Source: Candidatus Dormiibacterota bacterium
GTDB taxonomy: Bacteria > Chloroflexota > Dormibacteria > Aeolococcales > Bog-877
Assembly: GCA_013044295.1 (NCBI GenBank)
Contig: JABEUU010000086.1
Span: 1-50,944, forward strand
Direction of reading: 5' to 3'
DNA length: 50,944 nucleotides
Under the pieces are notes generated by a model, which was not told the DNA's origin, did not search any database, and saw nothing but the letters and a program-made list of their open reading frames with translations. The position numbers and the translations under genes were made by a program. This document shows positions 233 through 47,694 of the stretch, piece after piece (position 1 is the stretch's first letter; every line of letters starts with the position of its first letter).

Positions 233-2806
233 GTGGTCCCCGAGAACTCGGAGGCGATGTCGTTCCTGGAAGCCCTGAACGGGCGCGAGAACGGCGACGC
301 GCGGAGCCACTTCGCCGAGCAGATCGGCTCCTTGGATGACTTCCTGGTCATCGCCGGTCCCGGCGATAACCCAGGGATCACCCTTCGCCTACCGGGGCTC
401 GACGTCAGCTGCGTGCCGGTGCGGCGCGCCCGAGCCCCCCGAGAGCGGGTGGCCCTGGAGGTCGAGTCGGTGCGGCCGGCGCCTCCTGACCGGGAAGATG
501 TCGGCCGGGGTTCGCTGCGAGTTCGCTGCGCCCAGCCCCTGGTCTCCTCCAAGGACGGCGCGGACACCGACACCTTCCACCTGCTCACCATGGCCAAGCT
601 GGCCCGTGGTTCCAAGCCACCGGACCCGATCCTGCTGCAGACCCTGGCCCTGGTGGATGGGCTGGAGACCGCGGAGCGCCTGCGGGCGGCCACCCAGCGG
701 ACGCCGTTCGACGGGGTGGTCGAGCTCCTGCGCTGCCGCACCTGCCGTGGCCTCTGGCGCCCCGATCAGGACGAGCGGTGCCCCTCCTGCGGTCGGGAGC
801 TGGGGGAGGACGATCGCCGCCGCCCGGAGGCGGGCCGACTTGAGTTCTCGATACCCAAGGCGCACCAGATCACCATCTCGGTGGATGCGGCGGTGATGAT
901 CGAACCGGAGGACGAGCCCCACTATCTGGGCCGCGTGACCAAGGTTGATCACCGCCGCCGGATCGTGGAGGTGGCCTGCAAGGCCTACCAGACCGCCGGC
1001 AGCGAGGGCTGGATCACCCCCTCCTTCAACAAGCAGCTGTATGCCAGCAAGCGAAGCACCCTGGCGTCGATCGCCGGTGGGGACAGCCGCAGCCTGCTGC
1101 TCGCCCAGTTGCTGATCGACCCCGCTTCCGTCTACGCTCCCGAGGCCGCCCCGCGCGGAGATTGGGTGACCGCCGGGATGCGCAGCAACCCGGCTCAGGA
1201 CCGCGCGATCGGGATCATGGTGGCGATGCAGGCGGGTCAGGCGGTGCTGATCCAGGGCCCGCCCGGCACCGGCAAGACCTCGGTCATCGTGGAGGCGATC
1301 AAGCACCGCCTGCGCGAGCGGCCCGGGGAGCGCATCCTGGTCTGCTCCCACAGCAACCTGGCGGTAGACAATGCCCTGGAGCGGCTCGCCGGCACCCCCT
1401 CGATGCGAGCGGTGCGGGTGGCCAAGGCGGAGCGGGTGCACCCGGCGGTCGACGCCTTCAGGGTCGAGGATGAAGACGACTCGCGTCTGGTCGACGCCAA
1501 CGTCTTCTTCGCCACCTGCGCCACCGCCGCCACCTCATCGATCACGACCGACGAGGCCTTCGACCTGGTCATTCTGGACGAGGCCAACAAGGCCCGGATA
1601 GATGAGGCGCTTCCCTGCCTGCGTCTGGGTGCAGCGGTGGTGCTGGTCGGGGACCACAAGCAGCTACCCCCGGTGGAGGACGACGCCATCTACCAGATCG
1701 TGGACGACCGTCCCGAGCTGGAGGAGATCATCGACACCAGCCTCTTCGAGCGCTGCTGGGACGGAGGGGTACCCGACCAAGCTCGCTGTCTGCTGGTGGA
1801 GCAGCACCGGATGCACCCGGAGATCTCCCAGTACATCAGCTCGGCCTCCTACGAAAACCACCTGGAGAACGCCCCGGAGGTGCTCGACTACGACTACGTG
1901 ACGCGGCGGCCATTTCCGGTCGCCCTGCACATGGTGGACACCGCGGGCCTGCGCGGAGGTCGCGAGCGGCGGGGGGCCGGGGGCGCTCTCCGCAACGATG
2001 CCGAGGTCAAGGTCTGCGCCCAAGTGGTGCGGCTCCTGGATGAGCGGGTCGATCCCTCCCTATCGCTGGCCGTGATCGCCATGTACGCGGATCAGGTCGA
2101 CCACATCCGCCGGTCTCTCAGTCGGCGCCACTTCCGCCGCCAGGTGCGCATCGACACCGTCGACTCCTTCGAGGGACGCGAGGAGGACATGGTGGTGATC
2201 TCCCTGGTGCGGAGCAACGAACGCGGGCGAATCGGCTTCCTGCGGGTCCCCAACCGCCTCAACGTGGCCATTTCCCGCGCCCGGCGCCTGGTCGTGTGCG
2301 TCGGCGACGCCGCCACCCTCAGGGCCGGCGAAGAGACCATGTACGGCCGCCTGGTGGAGGCCGCCCAGGCCTGCGGGGGCTACCTCAAGGCGACCGAGTT
2401 GCTGGGTGGGGCGCGCGGGTCGAGGCCCCGATCCCAGCCGCGCCGCCCCGCCGAGGTCGCTGGGGAGGGCGTCCAGCCCAATCGCCGCCGCCGTCGTCGT
2501 CGCCGCCCCCATGGAGCCGTGGCCGCGCCCGGGACCGCCCCGACGGACGGCACCGCGCCCACGGACGGCGCCACCCCTCAGCCAGCCCGCAAGCGGCACC
2601 GCCGCCGCCGCCGGCCGCCCGGCTCGCCAGCACCACTTCCAGTGGATGGCGTCGCGGGCAGCGCTGCGGCCGGCTCGGCGCCGCCGCGCCCGGAGGGGCA
2701 GCCACATCGGCGAAGCCGCCATCGACGGCGTGGACCGCGCCCTCAGGCGGGACCGGGGCTGCCCTTTGAGACCGGCGTCAACAGCTCGGAAGGAGGCGCG
2801 CCATGA
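233..2806 (+). CDS. Superfamily-1 helicase (Upf1/DNA2-like, AAA_11/AAA_12 type) with an N-terminal Cys4 zinc ribbon and an Arg-rich C-terminal tail
   Basis: Walker A is GPPGTGKTS, Walker B is LVILDEANKA, and other motifs are VLVGDHKQLPP, VDSFEGREEDMVVISLVRSN and RLNVAISRARRLVV. The zinc ribbon is CRTC-x11-CPSC (about nt 734-793). The stop overlaps the hbd start (ATGA 2803-2806). The start is uncertain (GTG 233 or ATG 257). Confidence 0.85.
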   Translation: MVPENSEAMSFLEALNGRENGDARSHFAEQIGSLDDFLVIAGPGDNPGITLRLPGLDVSCVPVRRARAPRERVALEVESVRPAPPDREDVGRGSLRVRCAQPLVSSKDGADTDTFHLLTMAKLARGSKPPDPILLQTLALVDGLETAERLRAATQRTPFDGVVELLRCRTCRGLWRPDQDERCPSCGRELGEDDRRRPEAGRLEFSIPKAHQITISVDAAVMIEPEDEPHYLGRVTKVDHRRRIVEVACKAYQTAGSEGWITPSFNKQLYASKRSTLASIAGGDSRSLLLAQLLIDPASVYAPEAAPRGDWVTAGMRSNPAQDRAIGIMVAMQAGQAVLIQGPPGTGKTSVIVEAIKHRLRERPGERILVCSHSNLAVDNALERLAGTPSMRAVRVAKAERVHPAVDAFRVEDEDDSRLVDANVFFATCATAATSSITTDEAFDLVILDEANKARIDEALPCLRLGAAVVLVGDHKQLPPVEDDAIYQIVDDRPELEEIIDTSLFERCWDGGVPDQARCLLVEQHRMHPEISQYISSASYENHLENAPEVLDYDYVTRRPFPVALHMVDTAGLRGGRERRGAGGALRNDAEVKVCAQVVRLLDERVDPSLSLAVIAMYADQVDHIRRSLSRRHFRRQVRIDTVDSFEGREEDMVVISLVRSNERGRIGFLRVPNRLNVAISRARRLVVCVGDAATLRAGEETMYGRLVEAAQACGGYLKATELLGGARGSRPRSQPRRPAEVAGEGVQPNRRRRRRRRPHGAVAAPGTAPTDGTAPTDGATPQPARKRHRRRRRPPGSPAPLPVDGVAGSAAAGSAPPRPEGQPHRRSRHRRRGPRPQAGPGLPFETGVNSSEGGAP

Positions 2807-3666
2807 GTGAGTCCGGGATATCGTCGCTGTTCGTCGCGGGCGCCGGTCTGATGGGCTCTGGCATCGCTCACACGGCCGCCCAGAGTGGGGTGAGAGTAGC
2901 TCTCTACGACGCGGCGGAAGGAGCGGCCGAGCGCGCCATCGGCCGGATCGGCGATCGGCTGGCGCGGGCGGAACAATCGGGCCAGCTGGCGGCCGGTGCC
3001 GCCGCCAACACTGTGGAGAACCTCCGGGCGGTCGCCGACCCCGGGGCCGCTGCGGACACCCAGATGGTCATCGAGGCCATCTCGGAACAGCTGGAGGTCA
3101 AGCTCGCTTTCTGGTCCACCATGGACCAAATCTGCCCTGATCCGGTGCTCTTCGCCAGCAACACCTCATCGATCCCGATCACCCGCCTGGCCGCCACCAC
3201 CACCCGGCCGGAGCAGTTCATCGGGATGCACTTCTACAGCCCGGTTCCGGTCATGGAGCTGGTCGAGCTGGTCCGCGGGCTGCTCACCTCGGACGCCACC
3301 TACGCCACCGTGGAGCGCCTCTCACGGGACTTGGGCAAGAGCCCGGTCAGCTCCGCCGACACCCCGGGCTTCATCGGCAATCGCATCCTGATCCCCTTCC
3401 TGAATGAGGCCATGCAGGCGCTCCAGGAGGGGGTGGGCTCCGCGAAGGACATCGACCAGGTGGCCAAGCTCGGCTTCCGGCACCCGATGGGCCCGCTGGA
3501 GCTGGCCGACTTCATCGGTTTGGATGTCATCCTGGGCATCTGCAAGGTAATGTACGAAGGCCTGCACGACTCCCGCTACGCCCCCAACCCAATCCTCGAG
3601 CGCATGGTCGAAGCGGGCCATCTCGGCCGCAAGAGCGGGCGGGGCTTTCACAACTACAGCGGCTGA
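2803..3666 (+). CDS. hbd: 3-hydroxybutyryl-CoA / 3-hydroxyacyl-CoA dehydrogenase
   Basis: An N-terminal Rossmann motif VAGAGLMGSGIA is present. Family motifs are NTSS, HFYSPVPVMELVELV, DTPGFIGNRIL and FRHPMGPLELADFIGLDV. Confidence 0.9.
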   Translation: MSESGISSLFVAGAGLMGSGIAHTAAQSGVRVALYDAAEGAAERAIGRIGDRLARAEQSGQLAAGAAANTVENLRAVADPGAAADTQMVIEAISEQLEVKLAFWSTMDQICPDPVLFASNTSSIPITRLAATTTRPEQFIGMHFYSPVPVMELVELVRGLLTSDATYATVERLSRDLGKSPVSSADTPGFIGNRILIPFLNEAMQALQEGVGSAKDIDQVAKLGFRHPMGPLELADFIGLDVILGICKVMYEGLHDSRYAPNPILERMVEAGHLGRKSGRGFHNYSG

Positions 3667-3691
3667 TCCGGGCCTGCCGGCTCCGCCCCGG

Positions 3692-4774
3692 TCAGTCGGC
3701 CCGGAGCGCCTCCGCCAGGAACCGGATCCCGATCGGATAGCGGTATTCGATCCCACCATGACCGCCGTCGAACAGCTCCAGGTGAACCCCCTTCACCCCG
3801 ATCTCCTCCAGGCTGGCCTTGACCGCGACCGCGCCCACCTCGAGGAAGTACTCATCGGAGCGGCCCCCGTCCAGATACACGGCACGCAGGCTCTGGGCGG
3901 CCTGATGGCGACGCGCCATCAGGCGGACCGGGTCCCACTCCAACCAGCGCTCCCAAACCGCTTTCCGGATCGCCCCGGTGGCGGGGTCGAAGGGAAGCTC
4001 GGGGATTCCGTCCGCTCGCGCCGAGTAGCAGGCCGCCATCGCGTAGACGTTGACCAGCGGCCCGTCCCCGGGCTTGGAGATACCGGCCCGCGACTGGAAG
4101 TCCTCCCGAAAGCGCTCGATCGACCCCTGGTAGTGGTCGCGCAGGCTGCGCACCACCTGGGGGAACTCGGGGAGATAGCAGTACTCGAACAGGGCGTCGC
4201 CGGCGTGGCTGGCGAGGCCGGAGAAGAGGTCCGGCCGCAGCAGCGGTGTCACCATCGCCCCGTAGCCACCGCTGGACTTCCCGGCTACCCCGCGGTGCTC
4301 GCGGGCGGCCAGGGTGCGGAACTCCGCGTCCACCGCCGGAACTACTTCCTCGCACAGATAGCTGTGGTAGTTGCCGGTCCCCGGGGAGTCCAGGAACTGG
4401 CTGCCGCCAAGTCGGGTCCAGCAGTCGACGAAGACCAGGATGGTGGGCGGCACGGCCGGATCCGAGAACAGCTCGTCGTAGAGCTCCAGGGGACTCTTGC
4501 GGAAGGGACTGCGGTTCCTCCACATGTCAAGCTGGCCGGTCATGCCCTGGAGGACGTAGATCACCGGGAACCGCTCCGTCAGCGACTCTCGGTAGGCGGG
4601 AGGCAAGTAGATCCACACCGGACGCTCGGCGGGATCGCCCAGCGGGTTGGCTTTCAGCAGCTCGCTGGAGATGATCATCTCGCGGAGCTCGCCGGATCCG
4701 GGCCAGCTCCATGGCGGGCCCAGATCCCCGCCCGAACGTAGCCGGGGAACGCCAGACCCCCCTTCCTCTGCCAT
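3692..4774 (-). CDS. Putative esterase family alpha/beta hydrolase (esterase D / enterochelin-esterase-like)
   Basis: The nucleophile elbow is GKSSGGYGA and the family-like N-terminus is PVWIYLPPAY...FPVIYVLQG. ATG 4774 has an AGGAGGG SD 6 nt upstream. An alternative ATG lies at 4678. Confidence 0.7.
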   Translation of the reverse strand: MAEEGGSGVPRLRSGGDLGPPWSWPGSGELREMIISSELLKANPLGDPAERPVWIYLPPAYRESLTERFPVIYVLQGMTGQLDMWRNRSPFRKSPLELYDELFSDPAVPPTILVFVDCWTRLGGSQFLDSPGTGNYHSYLCEEVVPAVDAEFRTLAAREHRGVAGKSSGGYGAMVTPLLRPDLFSGLASHAGDALFEYCYLPEFPQVVRSLRDHYQGSIERFREDFQSRAGISKPGDGPLVNVYAMAACYSARADGIPELPFDPATGAIRKAVWERWLEWDPVRLMARRHQAAQSLRAVYLDGGRSDEYFLEVGAVAVKASLEEIGVKGVHLELFDGGHGGIEYRYPIGIRFLAEALRAD

Positions 4775-43595: not shown

Positions 43596-44480
43596 ATGCC
43601 AGTCCGGCAGAGCGTGATTGACACCGCGGATGGGCGGCAACTGGAGGTCTTCGAAGCCGGGTCCGCGGTCGGCCCGGCGATCATGGTCCATCACGGGACG
43701 CCCGGCTCCGGCCTGCTCGCTCCGGCGTGGGTCGAGTACGCGGGCCAGCTCGGGTTGAGGCTGGTGGGATTCAGCCGCCCGGGCTACTCCCGGTCGAGCC
43801 GGCGGGCGGGCAGGAGCGTGGCGCAGGTGGTGGACGACGTCGTGGTCGTGGCGGACGCCCTGGGGCTGGACAAGTTGGCGACCTGGGGCATCTCGGGCGG
43901 CGATCCGCACGCCCTGGCCCGCGCGGCGCTCCTGCCAGAGCGGGTCGTGGCCGCCTCCTGCATCTCCGGGGTAGCGCCCTACCTGGCGGAGGGCCTCGAC
44001 TGGACTGAGGGCATGGGCGAGGCCAACGTCGAGGAGTTCGGGCTCGCGACCGGCGGCAACGACGGCCGCCTCATGGCTGCGCTGGAGGCTGCGGCGGAGG
44101 GGATGCGAGCCGCCTCGCCCGAGCAGATGGTGGGCGAAATCAGCTCGATCCTGTCACCTGAGGATGAGGCCACCATGAGAGGCGACTTCGGCCTTGTGGT
44201 CGCGGATCAAACGCGCCAAGGATTGGCGGAGGGCCCCTTCGGAATGTTCGACGATGACCTCGCCTTCGTCAGCCCCTGGGGCTTCGACCCCGCCTCGATC
44301 CGGGTCCCCACCCAGGTCTGGCAGGGCGGCGAGGATTTGATGGTGCCCGCTGCCCATGGCGCTTGGCTGGCTGCCCGGATCCCAGGGGCCGAGGCCCACC
44401 TGGATCCAACTCTGGGTCATCTGACCGTCGTCGCCACCAGGATTTCCGAGGTCCACCGCTGGCTGCTCGGTCACTTCTAA
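43596..44480 (+). CDS. Alpha/beta-fold hydrolase
   Basis: The oxyanion region is IMVHHGTPGS and the nucleophile elbow is GISGGD. ATG 43596 has an AGGAG SD. Upstream, the track ORF overlaps the end of the EF-G2 gene. Confidence 0.8.
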   Translation: MPVRQSVIDTADGRQLEVFEAGSAVGPAIMVHHGTPGSGLLAPAWVEYAGQLGLRLVGFSRPGYSRSSRRAGRSVAQVVDDVVVVADALGLDKLATWGISGGDPHALARAALLPERVVAASCISGVAPYLAEGLDWTEGMGEANVEEFGLATGGNDGRLMAALEAAAEGMRAASPEQMVGEISSILSPEDEATMRGDFGLVVADQTRQGLAEGPFGMFDDDLAFVSPWGFDPASIRVPTQVWQGGEDLMVPAAHGAWLAARIPGAEAHLDPTLGHLTVVATRISEVHRWLLGHF

Positions 44481-44506
44481 GCACCTGGCCATAAGTCTTG
44501 TCCAAA
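44477..44506. repeat. Left inverted repeat
   Basis: CTAAGCACCTGGCCATAAGTCTTGTCCAAA matches the reverse complement of 46674-46703 (CTAAGCATGTGGCGAATAGTTTTGTCCAAA) at 24 of 30 positions. It contains the hydrolase stop TAA (44478-44480). Confidence 0.7.
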
Positions 44507-45934
44507 GACAAGACGCTGGTCAGGTCCGGCATGCGCCAGCGATGGGCCGGCGTGGTCCCGGCGGGCGAGTTGCCTGGGGGGCTCATCCGGAGTGGTCGGC
44601 AGCGCAGACCCGGCACTTCGCCGAGCAGCCCGGCGCCGTCTGGCGCTGGCCTGCTCCCTCCCGTCGCGACGGCGGAGAGGACGGGGCGGCGGAGCAGCGC
44701 TTGACTCGGACAGGGCTGCTTGCAGCCCTTCGATGCGCGCCAGGGCTCGCCTGGCGGCTTGGTAGTCCACCCGGGCCGTGCCCGGGGAGTGAGGGTCGGA
44801 GAGGGTCACGAAGGCGGCCAGGGCCGCAGCCACCAGATCCCGGTCTCCGATCAGACCACAGCTGGGGCAGCGATGGGTGCGCTCGGCCAGCGCCTTGGGC
44901 ACTCTTTCCCCGCACAGGCAGTTCTGGGACAGGGCGGTGGTGCGCGTGGAGGCCCGCACCAGTCCGGTGCCGGAGCGAGTGGTGACCGCCCCGGCCTCGT
45001 CCGCTATCGCACTCACCAACCGGCCGGGGGTGAAGGCGAGCAGGCTGCGGCCCCAGCGGCGTGCCCACAGGCGCAGGTCGCAGTCCTCCACCACCAAACT
45101 GGCGCCGTGGACCCAGACCAGCTCCTGGGCACAGCTGCGAGCCCGGTCGTCCCTGGCCCTGGTGCGAGCCGCCCCGGCTGCCGCCACCTCTGCCCGCAGC
45201 CGCCGGTAGCCGCCGGAGAGGACGTCCAGGTGGTAAGCCTGACGGGGCACTCCGGCGGAGTTGGCCAGCCGGGAACCCCGCGGCAGGTTGACGGTGACCG
45301 CTCGCTGTCCTGCTTCGACTCGCATCTTGGCGCGGCGCTGCTGCGCTCGGGAGAGCTGGTACTGAGTGGGATTGCGGCAGCGCCGGGAGCGCTCCATCGC
45401 CCTGGCCCTCCGCCGGCCTCGCAGCTGCTCCGCCGCCAGGCTGGCCCGCTCCTTCGGCCCGGCGGTGATGCTGCAGGCACGCACCTCGGTCAGCTCCCTG
45501 TCCACCGACACCACCGCCACCCTGGAGACGTTGACATCGATCCCCGCCCTGCGATCGGGGCCTGCCGCCGCCAGCCGCCGCCGGGCACTGGACGGGGAGG
45601 TGTAGGGAGCCTTCAGCACCAGCAGATGGGCCTCATACCTCCAGCCTCCAGGGACTCCGGGAGCCCGCAAGCGAACCAGGTTGACCTTGTGCCAGAGTCT
45701 GGGCTCCGCCAGGCGGTGGGCGGTGTGAGCCCAGCTCCCGGCTCCCTGGGGCAGGCGCACCGGCAGCACCAGGTCCCCATCACAGGAGGCAGGGCCGCCG
45801 CCGAACACCACTGCCAAGGCGCCCTGGTGGTCCCACCAACTCTCTGACTCTGGGGGCGCTGGCGCCACCAGATGGCGGGGCTGCCTGAGCACCGACTGGC
45901 CCAGAGGACACCAGAGCGCCTCGGCCACGGTCAC
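44477..45934 (-). CDS. tnpB: TnpB-like RuvC / zinc-ribbon nuclease, C-terminal part (WED-C plus RuvC)
   Basis: RuvC-I is RRAGIDVNVSRVAVVS and RuvC-II is SLVVEDCDL. The zinc ribbon is CLCG...HRCPSCG. RuvC-III is IGDRDLVAAALAA. The last 90 aa or so are R/P/A-rich low complexity. Confidence 0.75.
   Translation of the reverse strand: MTVAEALWCPLGQSVLRQPRHLVAPAPPESESWWDHQGALAVVFGGGPASCDGDLVLPVRLPQGAGSWAHTAHRLAEPRLWHKVNLVRLRAPGVPGGWRYEAHLLVLKAPYTSPSSARRRLAAAGPDRRAGIDVNVSRVAVVSVDRELTEVRACSITAGPKERASLAAEQLRGRRRARAMERSRRCRNPTQYQLSRAQQRRAKMRVEAGQRAVTVNLPRGSRLANSAGVPRQAYHLDVLSGGYRRLRAEVAAAGAARTRARDDRARSCAQELVWVHGASLVVEDCDLRLWARRWGRSLLAFTPGRLVSAIADEAGAVTTRSGTGLVRASTRTTALSQNCLCGERVPKALAERTHRCPSCGLIGDRDLVAAALAAFVTLSDPHSPGTARVDYQAARRALARIEGLQAALSESSAAPPPRPLRRRDGREQASARRRRAARRSAGSALPTTPDEPPRQLARRDHAGPSLAHAGPDQRLVFGQDLWPGA
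44495..44514. repeat. Perfect 8-bp stem / 4-nt loop hairpin inside and adjacent to the left IR
   Basis: The hairpin is GTCTTGTC-caaa-GACAAGAC. Confidence 0.6.
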
Positions 45935-46512
45935 CCCTGGGGAAGGCTTTGGGCTCTATAGCGATCCAGATGCCCCTGCAGCGTGCCCACCAGCCTGAAC
46001 GTCTCCCACTTGTGCTGGGTGGTATGAGAGCGGGCCCGTCCGGGAATGGTCCGAACGTCCCACCAACTCCCGGGACGGACAGCCCCCGCGCGGCGGCCGC
46101 TGGCGTCCGGGAACAGGTGACGGGAGGCCGCCTGCCATACCTGGTCGGCGGTGTGCATGGCCAAGGCCTTGGTGAGGTGGTGGCCGAGGTGGCGCGAGCG
46201 CTCCATGTGGGAGTAGGCCGCCTGCTCCAGGCCGGCGCGGGAAAGCCCCAGCCGCTCTCGCACCTGAGCTCCGCCCTTGACCTCCCGCTCGTGGCTGGCG
46301 GCCCAGTAGGCCCGGCAGCGCCGGCCCGCCTGCCGCTGCAGCGTGTGCCGCAGGGAGAACACCGCCTCGTACAGCTCCTCCAGCCGGTGGCGCCGGTGGG
46401 GATCCGACAGATCCAGGGACAGGCGGATCACTGCCACCGGCTCATCGGGCAAGCGCTGCCAAGGAGATCTTAGATTCGGCCCTCGGCGGCGGGGAGGGGT
46501 TGAGTCAGACAT
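45931..46512 (-). CDS. TnpB-like N-terminal part (WED-N plus REC-like helices)
   Basis: VAVIRLSLDLSDPHRRHRLEELYEAVFSLRHTLQRQ resembles the TnpB N-terminal strand plus helix, followed by helical REC-like sequence. The stop overlaps the GTG of the next ORF (GTGA 45931-45934). I chose ATG 46512, although the track ORF extends to 46635. Confidence 0.55.
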   Translation of the reverse strand: MSDSTPPRRRGPNLRSPWQRLPDEPVAVIRLSLDLSDPHRRHRLEELYEAVFSLRHTLQRQAGRRCRAYWAASHEREVKGGAQVRERLGLSRAGLEQAAYSHMERSRHLGHHLTKALAMHTADQVWQAASRHLFPDASGRRAGAVRPGSWWDVRTIPGRARSHTTQHKWETFRLVGTLQGHLDRYRAQSLPQG

Positions 46513-46673
46513 CGGAGCGCAGGATACTCCAATATGGGAACAACTGTGTGCCAACCCTCCCCCTTCGCTTCGCGCCTGCTGGCGGTGCACCCTCCCCCGG
46601 ATGATGCAGGTGGCTCTCCCGAGACGTCGAGGCACACCCAGTCATTCCCCATCGTGGCCTGGTCTCCCCAGAG

Positions 46674-46703
46674 TTTGGACAAAACTATTCGCCACATGCT
46701 TAG
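46674..46703. repeat. Right inverted repeat
   Basis: TTTGGACAAAACTATTCGCCACATGCTTAG is the partner of 44477-44506. Confidence 0.7.
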
Positions 46704-46747
46704 TCGACTGGGACGACCGGCCCTCCGATCCCGGTGCCGGCTCCCCG

Positions 46748-47347
46748 TCAGGGAGCCTCCCGCAGGCGGAGGATGAGGCGGGTCGCGACCGCCAGCGGCC
46801 CCAGGATCAGGACCGCCAAGCCCGCGATCACCAGCCACTCTGGGGCCACGAAGCCAGTCGATCGGCAGATCGTCGCTCCGCCGGCGGTGCCGGATGTGCA
46901 GCTGGTCGAACTGATGGTCCCCCAGACCAGCCCGAGGATGAAGAGGCCGCCCAGGCCACCGGGCCACACCAGAGCCCCCAGGAGCTTGTCGCTGAGCCGC
47001 CAGCGCCGGGAGACCGCCAGCAGGATCACCCCGACCAGCCAGCCCCCGATCGGGACCAGAAAGCCGCCGACGTAGAGAAACACCAGGGCCAGGACCTCGA
47101 GCCAGGGGACGGAGGGCCGGTCTGCAGGAACGACTTCAGCAGCGGCGGCGATGAGCTCGGGCGGTCCCAGGTCGTCCAGAGCCCGGCGCACCTCGAGCTC
47201 ATCGGCCCCGTCAGGGAGCGCCTCGGCGAGATGGGCGTCGATCTGCTCCAGCAGCGGCTCGCGCTGCGCCGGCGGCAGGGCCTGGGCGGCCTCCCTCAGC
47301 CGGCGCCGAAAGTCTGCCACCAGCCGGCCAGGGTCGCTCGCGGTCAC
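46748..47347 (-). CDS. HAAS/DUF1700-like membrane protein (PadR-associated)
   Basis: The N-terminal cytoplasmic helices are LVADFRRRLREAAQALPPAQREPLLEQIDAHLAEAL, followed by 3-4 TM helices. The GTG 47347 start overlaps the PadR stop (GTGA). Confidence 0.7.
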   Translation of the reverse strand: MTASDPGRLVADFRRRLREAAQALPPAQREPLLEQIDAHLAEALPDGADELEVRRALDDLGPPELIAAAAEVVPADRPSVPWLEVLALVFLYVGGFLVPIGGWLVGVILLAVSRRWRLSDKLLGALVWPGGLGGLFILGLVWGTISSTSCTSGTAGGATICRSTGFVAPEWLVIAGLAVLILGPLAVATRLILRLREAP

Positions 47348-47694
47348 CTCAGCTCCCCGGCGGGGAATAGGACCAGTTCCACCATCTCCCGAAAGGTCCG
47401 CCACTCCGACCGGAAGCGCGCCAGGGCGAGGGAGCCCTCGGCCGTGAGCTGGTAGTACTTCCGGGCCCGGTCCCCGGTCCCCGGCCGCCAGCTGGTGGAG
47501 ACTAGGCGGCTCTCCTTGAGGCGGTTCAGCAGCGGGTACACGGTCCCTTGGCTGGTGACCAGGCCGCCCATCGCGCTCATGGTCCGGACCAGGTCGAAGC
47601 CGTAGCGGTCCTCGACCTCCAGCAGAGCGAGCACACAGTACTCCACAACTCCGCGCCGCAGCTCCGTCATCGCAGAGCTGGGTGGCAACGGCAT
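47344..47694 (-). CDS. PadR-family transcriptional regulator
   Basis: The winged-HTH segment is LRRGVVEYCVLALLEVEDRYGFDLVRTM...SQGTVYPLLNRLKESRLV...RKYYQLTAEG. Confidence 0.85.
   Translation of the reverse strand: MPLPPSSAMTELRRGVVEYCVLALLEVEDRYGFDLVRTMSAMGGLVTSQGTVYPLLNRLKESRLVSTSWRPGTGDRARKYYQLTAEGSLALARFRSEWRTFREMVELVLFPAGELR

Follow-up and report, generated by a model that had tools for sequence, protein, structure and literature searches.

A probable IS630-type non-autonomous element whose only gene encodes a TnpB/Cas12-like nuclease in a Candidatus Dormiibacterota bacterium

We analysed a 50,944-nt stretch of DNA from a Candidatus Dormiibacterota bacterium (assembly GCA_013044295.1, contig JABEUU010000086.1, positions 1 to 50,944), referred to below as the window; loci compared with it carry L numbers. 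Two minus-strand open reading frames (ORFs), 45931-46635 and 44477-45934, occupy an interval bounded by inverted repeats. A first-pass annotation had described this interval as a 2.2-kb unit bounded by 30-bp inverted repeats, with two ORFs that together resemble a TnpB/Cas12-type nuclease and with no TnpA. The features of the unit are as follows.

44480-44506, unstranded: terminal inverted repeat on the 3' side of the gene (right end of the element), placed by repeat search and homology limits; it encodes the protein end ...FGQDLWPGA (stop).
46674-46700, unstranded: terminal inverted repeat on the 5' side of the gene (left end of the element), placed by repeat search and homology limits.
44478-44479, unstranded: left TA target-site duplication, from the occupied site compared with L091; C44477 is the first base of CTAG.
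46701-46702, unstranded: right TA target-site duplication, from the window compared with L091; G46703 is the last base of CTAG.
45931-46513, minus strand: upstream part of the nuclease gene, N-terminal WED/REC region; the likely start is ATG 46513-46511, the frame is open to 46635, and the placement comes from homologue alignment.
44477-45934, minus strand: downstream part of the nuclease gene, a 485-aa ORF with the end of WED/REC, RuvC-I, RuvC-II, the zinc ribbon, RuvC-III and a disordered tail, from Pfam, NCBIfam, PDB profile and Foldseek searches.
45536-45538, 45086-45088 and 44837-44839, minus strand: catalytic codons for D, E and D, respectively, from invariant alignment columns.
45939-45942, unstranded: frameshift site, GGGG in the window against GGGGG in L089; the deletion creates TGA at 45931-45933.
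44477-44680, minus strand: candidate guide-RNA (omega/reRNA) scaffold overlapping the 3' coding tail, with core hairpin arms at 44579-44590 and 44547-44558.

A repeat search returned the arms 44477-44506 and 46674-46703 as the top inverted pair of the region, 30 nt long and 80% complementary (24/30). This score alone is marginal, having been matched in one of 40 Markov shuffles of the 3.6-kb region. The arms have a GC content of 40-47% in a surrounding region of 71% GC, and the repeat core TTTGGACAARAC occurs at just these two sites in the window (0.09 expected). In the blastn comparison, homology with related copies in unrelated contexts (L007, L006 and L001) ended at the repeat tips, and the match to L007 covered query positions 401-2627, exactly the unit. 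Because homology ends at the tips, an orthologous empty site exists, and the same repeat also delimits IS630-family insertion sequences (ISs) and elements resembling miniature inverted-repeat transposable elements (MITEs) elsewhere, the repeat was taken as the element boundary. The 24/30 inverted repeat first reported is thus real, and its arms define precisely where a mobile unit begins and ends. Counted to G46703, the 5'-side repeat matched the right end of the IS630-family IS in L100 at 24/30 positions and the 5' end of L007 at 27/30.

The empty site lies in the relative L091 (GCA_035531535.1), a syntenic contig with a 90% identical hydrolase and without the element. It reads ...CACTTCTAGT..., that is, CACTT-CTAG-T; across the junction the sequence is ...GGTCACTTCTAG on one side and TGCACGGCGACGACCGG on the other. 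The occupied site in the window reads ...GGTCACTT-C-TA-[AGCACC...CATGCT]-TA-G-TCGACTGGGACGACCGG, equivalent to CACTT-C-TA-[element]-TA-G-T. Comparison of the two sites showed that the insertion target was CTAG and that TA was duplicated, a classic signature of the IS630 family, and the element proper spans 44480-46700 (2221 bp). These results indicate that 44480-46700 is a non-autonomous insertion sequence with IS630-type terminal inverted repeats of ~27-30 bp, inserted in CTAG with duplication of TA. Extra copies, empty sites and target-site duplications had been proposed as things to look for, and we found copies in other contexts, the empty site in L091 and the TA duplication. A PIF/Harbinger-type 3-bp TWA duplication, with ends read as CTAAG...CTTAG, was considered and rejected, as the triplets are inverted rather than direct and the empty site is CTAG.

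As a separate observation on the target, one 8-mer, TCGACTAG/CTAGTCGA, contains the insertions of both the window (44470-44480 with 46701-46712) and L007 (1407-1417 and 3627-3637), which face opposite ways relative to it; the empty site of L091 reads CTAGTGCA. The common 8-mer could be a coincidence (roughly 1 in 64) or point to a longer preferred target.

When the joined ORFs were used as the query, more than 1000 homologues were returned, and the best 120 were nearly all single proteins of 600-750 aa, most of them spanning 85-100% of both parts. The homologue alignment was unbroken at the ORF junction, where the window reads ...LPQG and then VTVAEAL against ...LPAGATVAEAL. Among copies at the same site, L088 carries the same deletion and split, L089 (99.2% identical) has one extra G and a frame that reads through, and L094 has one long ORF of 627 aa. 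These findings indicate that the two ORFs are a single gene of ~680 aa split by a 1-nt deletion, so that both exist between the repeats as first described, although as one frameshifted gene, with homologues that are single ORFs of 650-720 aa, and not as two genes. Since the same-site alleles in L089 and L094 are intact, the window holds a recent 1-nt deletion allele. Programmed frameshifting at the GTGA overlap was ruled out, because the intact alleles differ by a simple 1-nt indel. L089, which lies near a contig end, is without ~140 nt of the N-terminal coding region (window 46235-46375) and is otherwise 99% identical; this gap could be a true deletion or a contig-end assembly artefact.

The encoded protein was then compared with known families. 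It passed the gathering cut-off of Pfam Cas12f1-like_TNB (28.6 bits against 26.3) and matched NCBIfam guided_TnpB (NF040570) with an E value of 2.8e-9, with further weak matches to NCBIfam IS607_TnpB and IS200_TnpB. A profile of 66 homologues searched against the PDB matched only TnpB, TranC and Cas12m chains (best E 4.6e-6), and in the HMMER alignment to a TnpB-like PDB chain, VEDcd paired with VEDLN and dRDlvsA with DRDENAA. D326, E476 and D559 of the joined window protein (the last being D560 in P0004) stand in canonical order and are invariant in 10 and in 66 homologues. A zinc ribbon, CxC...CxxC, lies between RuvC-II and RuvC-III, and its cysteines (C533, C535, C550 and C553 of P0004) are invariant in the 66 sequences.

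The AlphaFold2 model of P0004 had a mean predicted local distance difference test score of 80.7 and a predicted template modelling (TM) score of 0.72, with a strand followed by a long helical bundle in the N-terminal region and with residues 606-679 disordered. In a Foldseek search against the PDB, all 23 matches at E<=1e-3 were Cas12m2, Cas12f, ISFba1 or ISDra2 TnpB, Fanzor2, Cas12o, Cas-phi or Cas12h (best E 7e-10; aligned lengths of 509-777 columns; with one exception, target-normalised TM of 0.33-0.60). The nuclease is only 9-16% identical to the solved structures. The searches and the model together place the protein among the RuvC nucleases of the TnpB/Cas12 superfamily, with a WED-REC-RuvC fold, and its extra length over typical TnpB corresponds, as modelled, to a longer helical N-terminal half and a disordered tail of ~75 aa. 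The first assignment to a TnpB/Cas12 type with an intact D-E-D triad and CxC...CxxC motif was thus borne out by Pfam, NCBIfam, the PDB profile, Foldseek and the 66 homologues.

To place the terminal repeats, we scanned metagenomes with the degenerate repeat CTAAGCAnnTGGCnAnnAGTnnTGTCC and obtained 17 loci, in none of which a TnpB-like protein or an IS5-like transposase is encoded. Eight of them encode, in full or in part, a 346-aa protein with DDE_3 and HTH_29 domains, whose close homologues bear the NCBI name 'IS630 family transposase' (Saccharothrix, Lentzea, Actinoplanes, Dactylosporangium and others). The IS630-family element in L100 is 1165 bp long and targets TA in CTAG. Counted from C44477, the 3' repeat of the window matched the right end of L100 at 26/30 positions, the end of L111 at 25/30 and the left end of L100 at 20/30; it is closer to the right end of L100 than the two window arms are to each other. 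The right repeat of L100 encodes the transposase C-terminus ...GFGQDFWPDA (stop), and the window repeat encodes ...VFGQDLWPGA (stop). Two MITE-like elements of ~520 bp, L112 851-1363 (513 bp) and L113 84-617 (534 bp), have perfect 33-bp inverted ends, CTAAGCAGGTGGCCAGAAGTTCTGTCCGTAAC, of the window repeat type around unrelated inner sequences. Inside the unit we found neither a Y1 or serine TnpA nor any other transposase, which confirms the lack of TnpA noted at first. Because neither the unit nor the 50.9-kb window holds a DDE_3 transposase gene, the element is non-autonomous. Judged from these sequences, mobilisation in trans by an IS630-family transposase would be the best reading, and a non-autonomous element mobilised in trans is also the best-fitting of the three explanations offered by the first-pass annotation.

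We further examined copies of the element elsewhere. A genome scan with one genome per species gave 273 relatives, of which 80 were kept. Copies occur in unrelated contexts: L001 beside an alcohol dehydrogenase, L002-L006 beside an IS4 element and a group II intron, and L007 beside a YaaH-type gene. Several genomes hold multiple copies, with at least six in the complete genome of Dactylosporangium sp. CA-233914, and such copies are 88-93% identical across a shared ~2.1 kb. The alignable part of within-genome copies is ~2.1-2.5 kb long and reaches to the element 3' terminus. Nearly all elements end in ...CTTAG, the TAG being the stop codon or lying just after it, and they start with CTAAG or a variant, with inverted repeats that differ by subfamily. 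Within the ~680-aa lineage, protein identity is 46-53% from Dormibacterota to Streptomyces. A plasmid search did not find near-identical copies.

Two neighbouring ISs were tried as partners in cis, an IS4 gene immediately upstream of the L002 copy and an IS630-family IS that abuts three Dactylosporangium copies. Both were rejected, because they are located beyond the repeats and possess ends of their own that differ from those of the element. The IS630-family IS, 1150 bp long and with a DDE_3 transposase, sits exactly at the 5'-junction TA of these three copies in both orientations (L024 2765-3914; L039 and L052 about 2767-3916). IS630-type insertions seem to have a hot spot in the CTAG that is re-formed where the element joins the flank. 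In L002-L006 and L008, a group II intron (a 440-aa ORF with RVT_1 and GIIM on the opposite strand; for example, L006 2270-4188) lies inside the element, 24 nt from its 3' terminus, so that the nuclease ORF is truncated and the terminal repeat split off.

In 30 of the 80 actinomycete relatives, a DDE transposase ORF lies directly upstream of the nuclease gene in divergent orientation. A whole-flank search placed the actinomycete 5' ends 0.7-1 kb upstream of the nuclease ORF and thereby revealed this gene as internal; the IS5-like ORF lies between the inverted repeats wherever the 5' repeat could be located. It carries HTH_Tnp_4 and DDE_Tnp_1/DDE_Tnp_4 domains, with a weak match to NCBIfam transpos_IS5_4, and no further copies of it were found in the ±4-kb flanks. 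The elements with this transposase are ~3.1 kb long. A Y1 or serine TnpA adjoins the nuclease gene in none of the 80 relatives, and the DDE transposase is the only recurrent neighbour. The same gene pair is present on a Mycobacterium intracellulare plasmid (L116, NZ_CP012886.2 420864-423675), where it is annotated as 'transposase family protein' and 'zinc ribbon domain-containing protein'; there it adjoins an IS607-type TnpB. Since the nuclease gene is found on both IS5-like and IS630-like scaffolds, it is a passenger able to ride different DDE transposons.

The 3' end of the gene was assessed for RNA-like structure. In five elements of the Dormibacterota clade, third-codon-position identity at conserved residues climbed from ~0.65 to 0.84-0.89 over the final ~90 codons, which specify the disordered tail. 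With six sequences, RNAalifold found compensatory changes in 14 pairs, whereas shuffled controls gave 6.7±1.7. R1, a covariance model built from the terminal 204 nt, hit the gene strand at the 3' ends of over 50 distant relatives, and in its alignment 47 of 57 pairs showed compensatory changes (324 cells, against 101.5±7.3 when shuffled and 34-58 when slid). Because the R1 alignment is fitted to the model, an independent MAFFT/RNAalifold run was performed with 30 sequences. The results showed that the core stem was kept, with one unpaired cell in 270 over nine pairs and with core-stem swaps of GC/AU at 25:4 and 24:6 and of CG/AU/GC at 17:7:6. Some swaps are synonymous on both arms (CCG GAT...GCC GGA against CCA GAT...GCT GGA), and wobble pairs favour the sense strand. 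These results demonstrate that the last ~200 nt hold a stem-loop conserved by compensatory changes on the gene strand, and this structure is consistent with a guide-RNA scaffold. Promoter and terminator scans of 44300-46900 returned nothing, and no clustered regularly interspaced short palindromic repeat (CRISPR) arrays or other tandem repeats were found near the locus.

Taken together, it is likely that the locus is an IS630-type non-autonomous element whose sole gene encodes a TnpB/Cas12-type nuclease. In the mechanism that we propose, an IS630-family DDE transposase supplied in trans would recognise the shared ends and cut and paste the element. The intact protein would bind RNA from the 3' end of its own transcript, and, as happens with canonical TnpB, this RNA would extend past the element so that the flanking sequence serves as the guide. 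The RNA-protein complex would then cut the emptied donor site, and repair would restore the element.

Several results weigh against this reading. All 17 metagenomic loci that share the ends lack a TnpB-like gene; no copy combining an IS630 transposase with this nuclease was found among the loci examined, and the missing DDE_3 gene in the window counts on the same side. For the nuclease itself, the NF040570 match reached 36.7 bits against a cut-off of 100, the protein being a divergent branch, whose similarity to solved TnpBs in the PDB profile search is limited to the RuvC-II, zinc ribbon and RuvC-III stretch. The frameshifted window copy probably makes no full-length nuclease. For the RNA, Rfam gave no family at E<=1 over 44200-47000, and the conserved stem could have a different function, for instance in binding the transposase or stabilising the mRNA.

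Among other explanations, the locus may be domesticated or decaying, that is, an immobile RNA-guided regulator or nuclease recruited by the host, or a dead relic. The insertion is fixed at its site in every contig with an identical or 97% identical hydrolase, and the window copy is frameshifted, as such a locus would allow. Against this speak the intact catalytic triad and the well-preserved ends, the unbroken alleles found at this site, and a family present in multiple copies whose contexts vary. We therefore regard this explanation as unlikely, and the domesticated nuclease locus suggested at first fares no better, with the window copy itself broken; 'dead relic' may fit the window copy alone while the element type stays mobile.

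A second explanation makes the element autonomous, with the TnpB-like protein acting as its transposase and the RNase-H-like RuvC domain recognising the repeats and carrying out the TA-duplicating insertion. The unit indeed contains no other gene, several genomes, such as that of Dactylosporangium, hold multiple solo elements, and no partner transposase was seen in the window. However, the same ends occur on the 1.16-kb IS630-family IS and on MITE-like elements of ~520 bp without a TnpB-like gene, the TA duplication in CTAG is an IS630-family signature, and 30 of the 80 relatives have a DDE transposase inside the repeats. Moreover, the structural neighbours of the protein are all RNA-guided nucleases and none is a transposase. 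Autonomous transposition by the nuclease is thus very unlikely. Finally, a solo tnpB of the IS200/IS605 or IS607 type (IS1341-like), with a Y1 or serine TnpA elsewhere in the genome and an incidental inverted repeat, would accord with most TnpB genes being solo and dependent on TnpA in trans, with the weak IS607_TnpB and IS200_TnpB matches and with a hairpin near the 3' end, but it is extremely improbable, given that those families have no terminal inverted repeats or target duplication (PMC13565253), that the repeats here are conserved across the family, that the empty site and TA duplication contradict it, and that DDE transposases, not Y1 or serine recombinases, recur beside the gene.

The kind of element identified here is already known, because DDE-associated TnpBs and solo copies were described previously. 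Altae-Tran et al. (2023, PNAS 120:e2308224120, PMC10691335) reported six DDE-associated TnpB branches (DDE-1 to DDE-6), all with inverted terminal repeats and one of them IS630-linked, together with solo TnpBs with matching ends that are presumed to be mobile in trans. Kojima (2026, PMC13565253) listed ISL2, IS630 and IS1031 as DDE partners of TnpB, with ISL2 and IS1031 belonging to the IS5 subgroup. Therefore, the idea of an undescribed TnpB vehicle with terminal inverted repeats does not hold, the ends being of the IS630-family type with CTAG/TA. Like the elements of Altae-Tran et al., the present one has a TnpB homologue in an inverted-repeat transposon, with the 3' end of tnpB less than 250 bp from the transposon end, and a DDE transposase in cis in some members alongside solo copies with matching ends (here 30 of 80 relatives have it in cis and the window copy is solo). 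Their IS630-linked branch, which extends to giant viruses, encodes in cis both its transposase and a distinct HTH protein, whereas the IS630-type ends of the window enclose the nuclease gene alone, its ORF reads through the repeat, and its closest protein relatives travel with an IS5-like rather than an IS630 transposase.

With the IS630 family (Tc1/mariner superfamily) and its MITEs, the element shares repeats matching at 20-26/30 positions, the CTAG/TA target, and a repeat that encodes the C-terminus of the resident ORF, as well as the existence of derivatives without transposase that share the ends. It differs in having no DDE_3 transposase, in its 2-kb TnpB-like cargo and in its length of 2.2 kb against ~1.16 kb. 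With canonical TnpB (IS200/IS605 and IS607; ISDra2 and ISFba1), Cas12f and Cas12m, the protein shares the WED-REC-RuvC-zinc ribbon fold and the D-E-D order, and as in canonical TnpB, a structured RNA region, here a candidate one, extends across the gene's 3' end in sense orientation. Canonical TnpB is ~400 aa long and has Y1 or serine carriers, whereas the window protein is ~680 aa long, has a DDE-type carrier and falls below the NCBIfam TnpB cut-off. Fanzor1 of eukaryotic terminal-inverted-repeat transposons (Bao and Jurka 2013, PMC3627910) is likewise a passenger nuclease in DDE transposons, Mariner/Tc1 included, with inverted repeats and short duplications, but the window element is prokaryotic and Fanzor2 was only a mid-rank Foldseek match (rank 19).

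To what has been described, the locus adds an empty site with a TA duplication, ends common to ordinary IS630-family elements and MITEs, a reading frame that continues into the repeat and across it, one protein family that apparently uses two different DDE scaffolds, and a 3' structure supported by covariation. Canonical TnpB is thought to earn its keep by cutting the donor site again after scarless excision by a Y1 or serine transposase, and why a DDE cut-and-paste element would retain a nuclease of this kind is under continuing discussion (PMC13565253, section 6.2). The locus offers a fully delimited example, with intact and frameshifted alleles at one site and with defined parts for testing the RNA guidance and targets of DDE-borne TnpBs. 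It also points to a large actinobacterial TnpB-like family hidden by standard annotation: the Prokaryotic Genome Annotation Pipeline names family members only 'zinc ribbon domain-containing protein', which makes the family invisible to name-based TnpB surveys. It is possible, if somewhat doubtful, that one ~680-aa TnpB-like lineage switched between two unrelated DDE scaffolds, with its frame fused through the terminal repeat and a guide-RNA scaffold wholly inside the coding sequence of the disordered tail. If this is true, and the protein is an active RNA-guided nuclease with a motif tied to CTAG/TA, the family would represent an uncharacterised RNA-guided homing solution in cut-and-paste transposons, as well as a new, larger TnpB scaffold.

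The gene flanking the element on its right end was also examined.

43596-44480, plus strand: alpha/beta hydrolase gene, 294 aa (Pfam Abhydrolase_1), with the stop codon TAA at 44478-44480.

The left repeat had been said to contain the stop codon of this gene, and it does; the further suggestion that the insertion remodelled the 3' end of the gene was not upheld. The stop is TAG inside the CTAG target in the empty site of L091 and TAA in the window, and close and distant homologues of the hydrolase are all 294 aa long. The 3' end has therefore not been remodelled and the protein is unchanged, the stop having merely turned from TAG into TAA. An identical hydrolase protein is present on three further contigs, each with the element at the same site. 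On the other side of the element, L091 4886-6012 corresponds to window 46704-47690, which holds HAAS and PadR genes, with 83.6% identity over 1293 nt. In L091, the ORFs called in this stretch are just 55-96 aa long, which suggests gene decay or frameshifts in the part that matches the HAAS and PadR genes.

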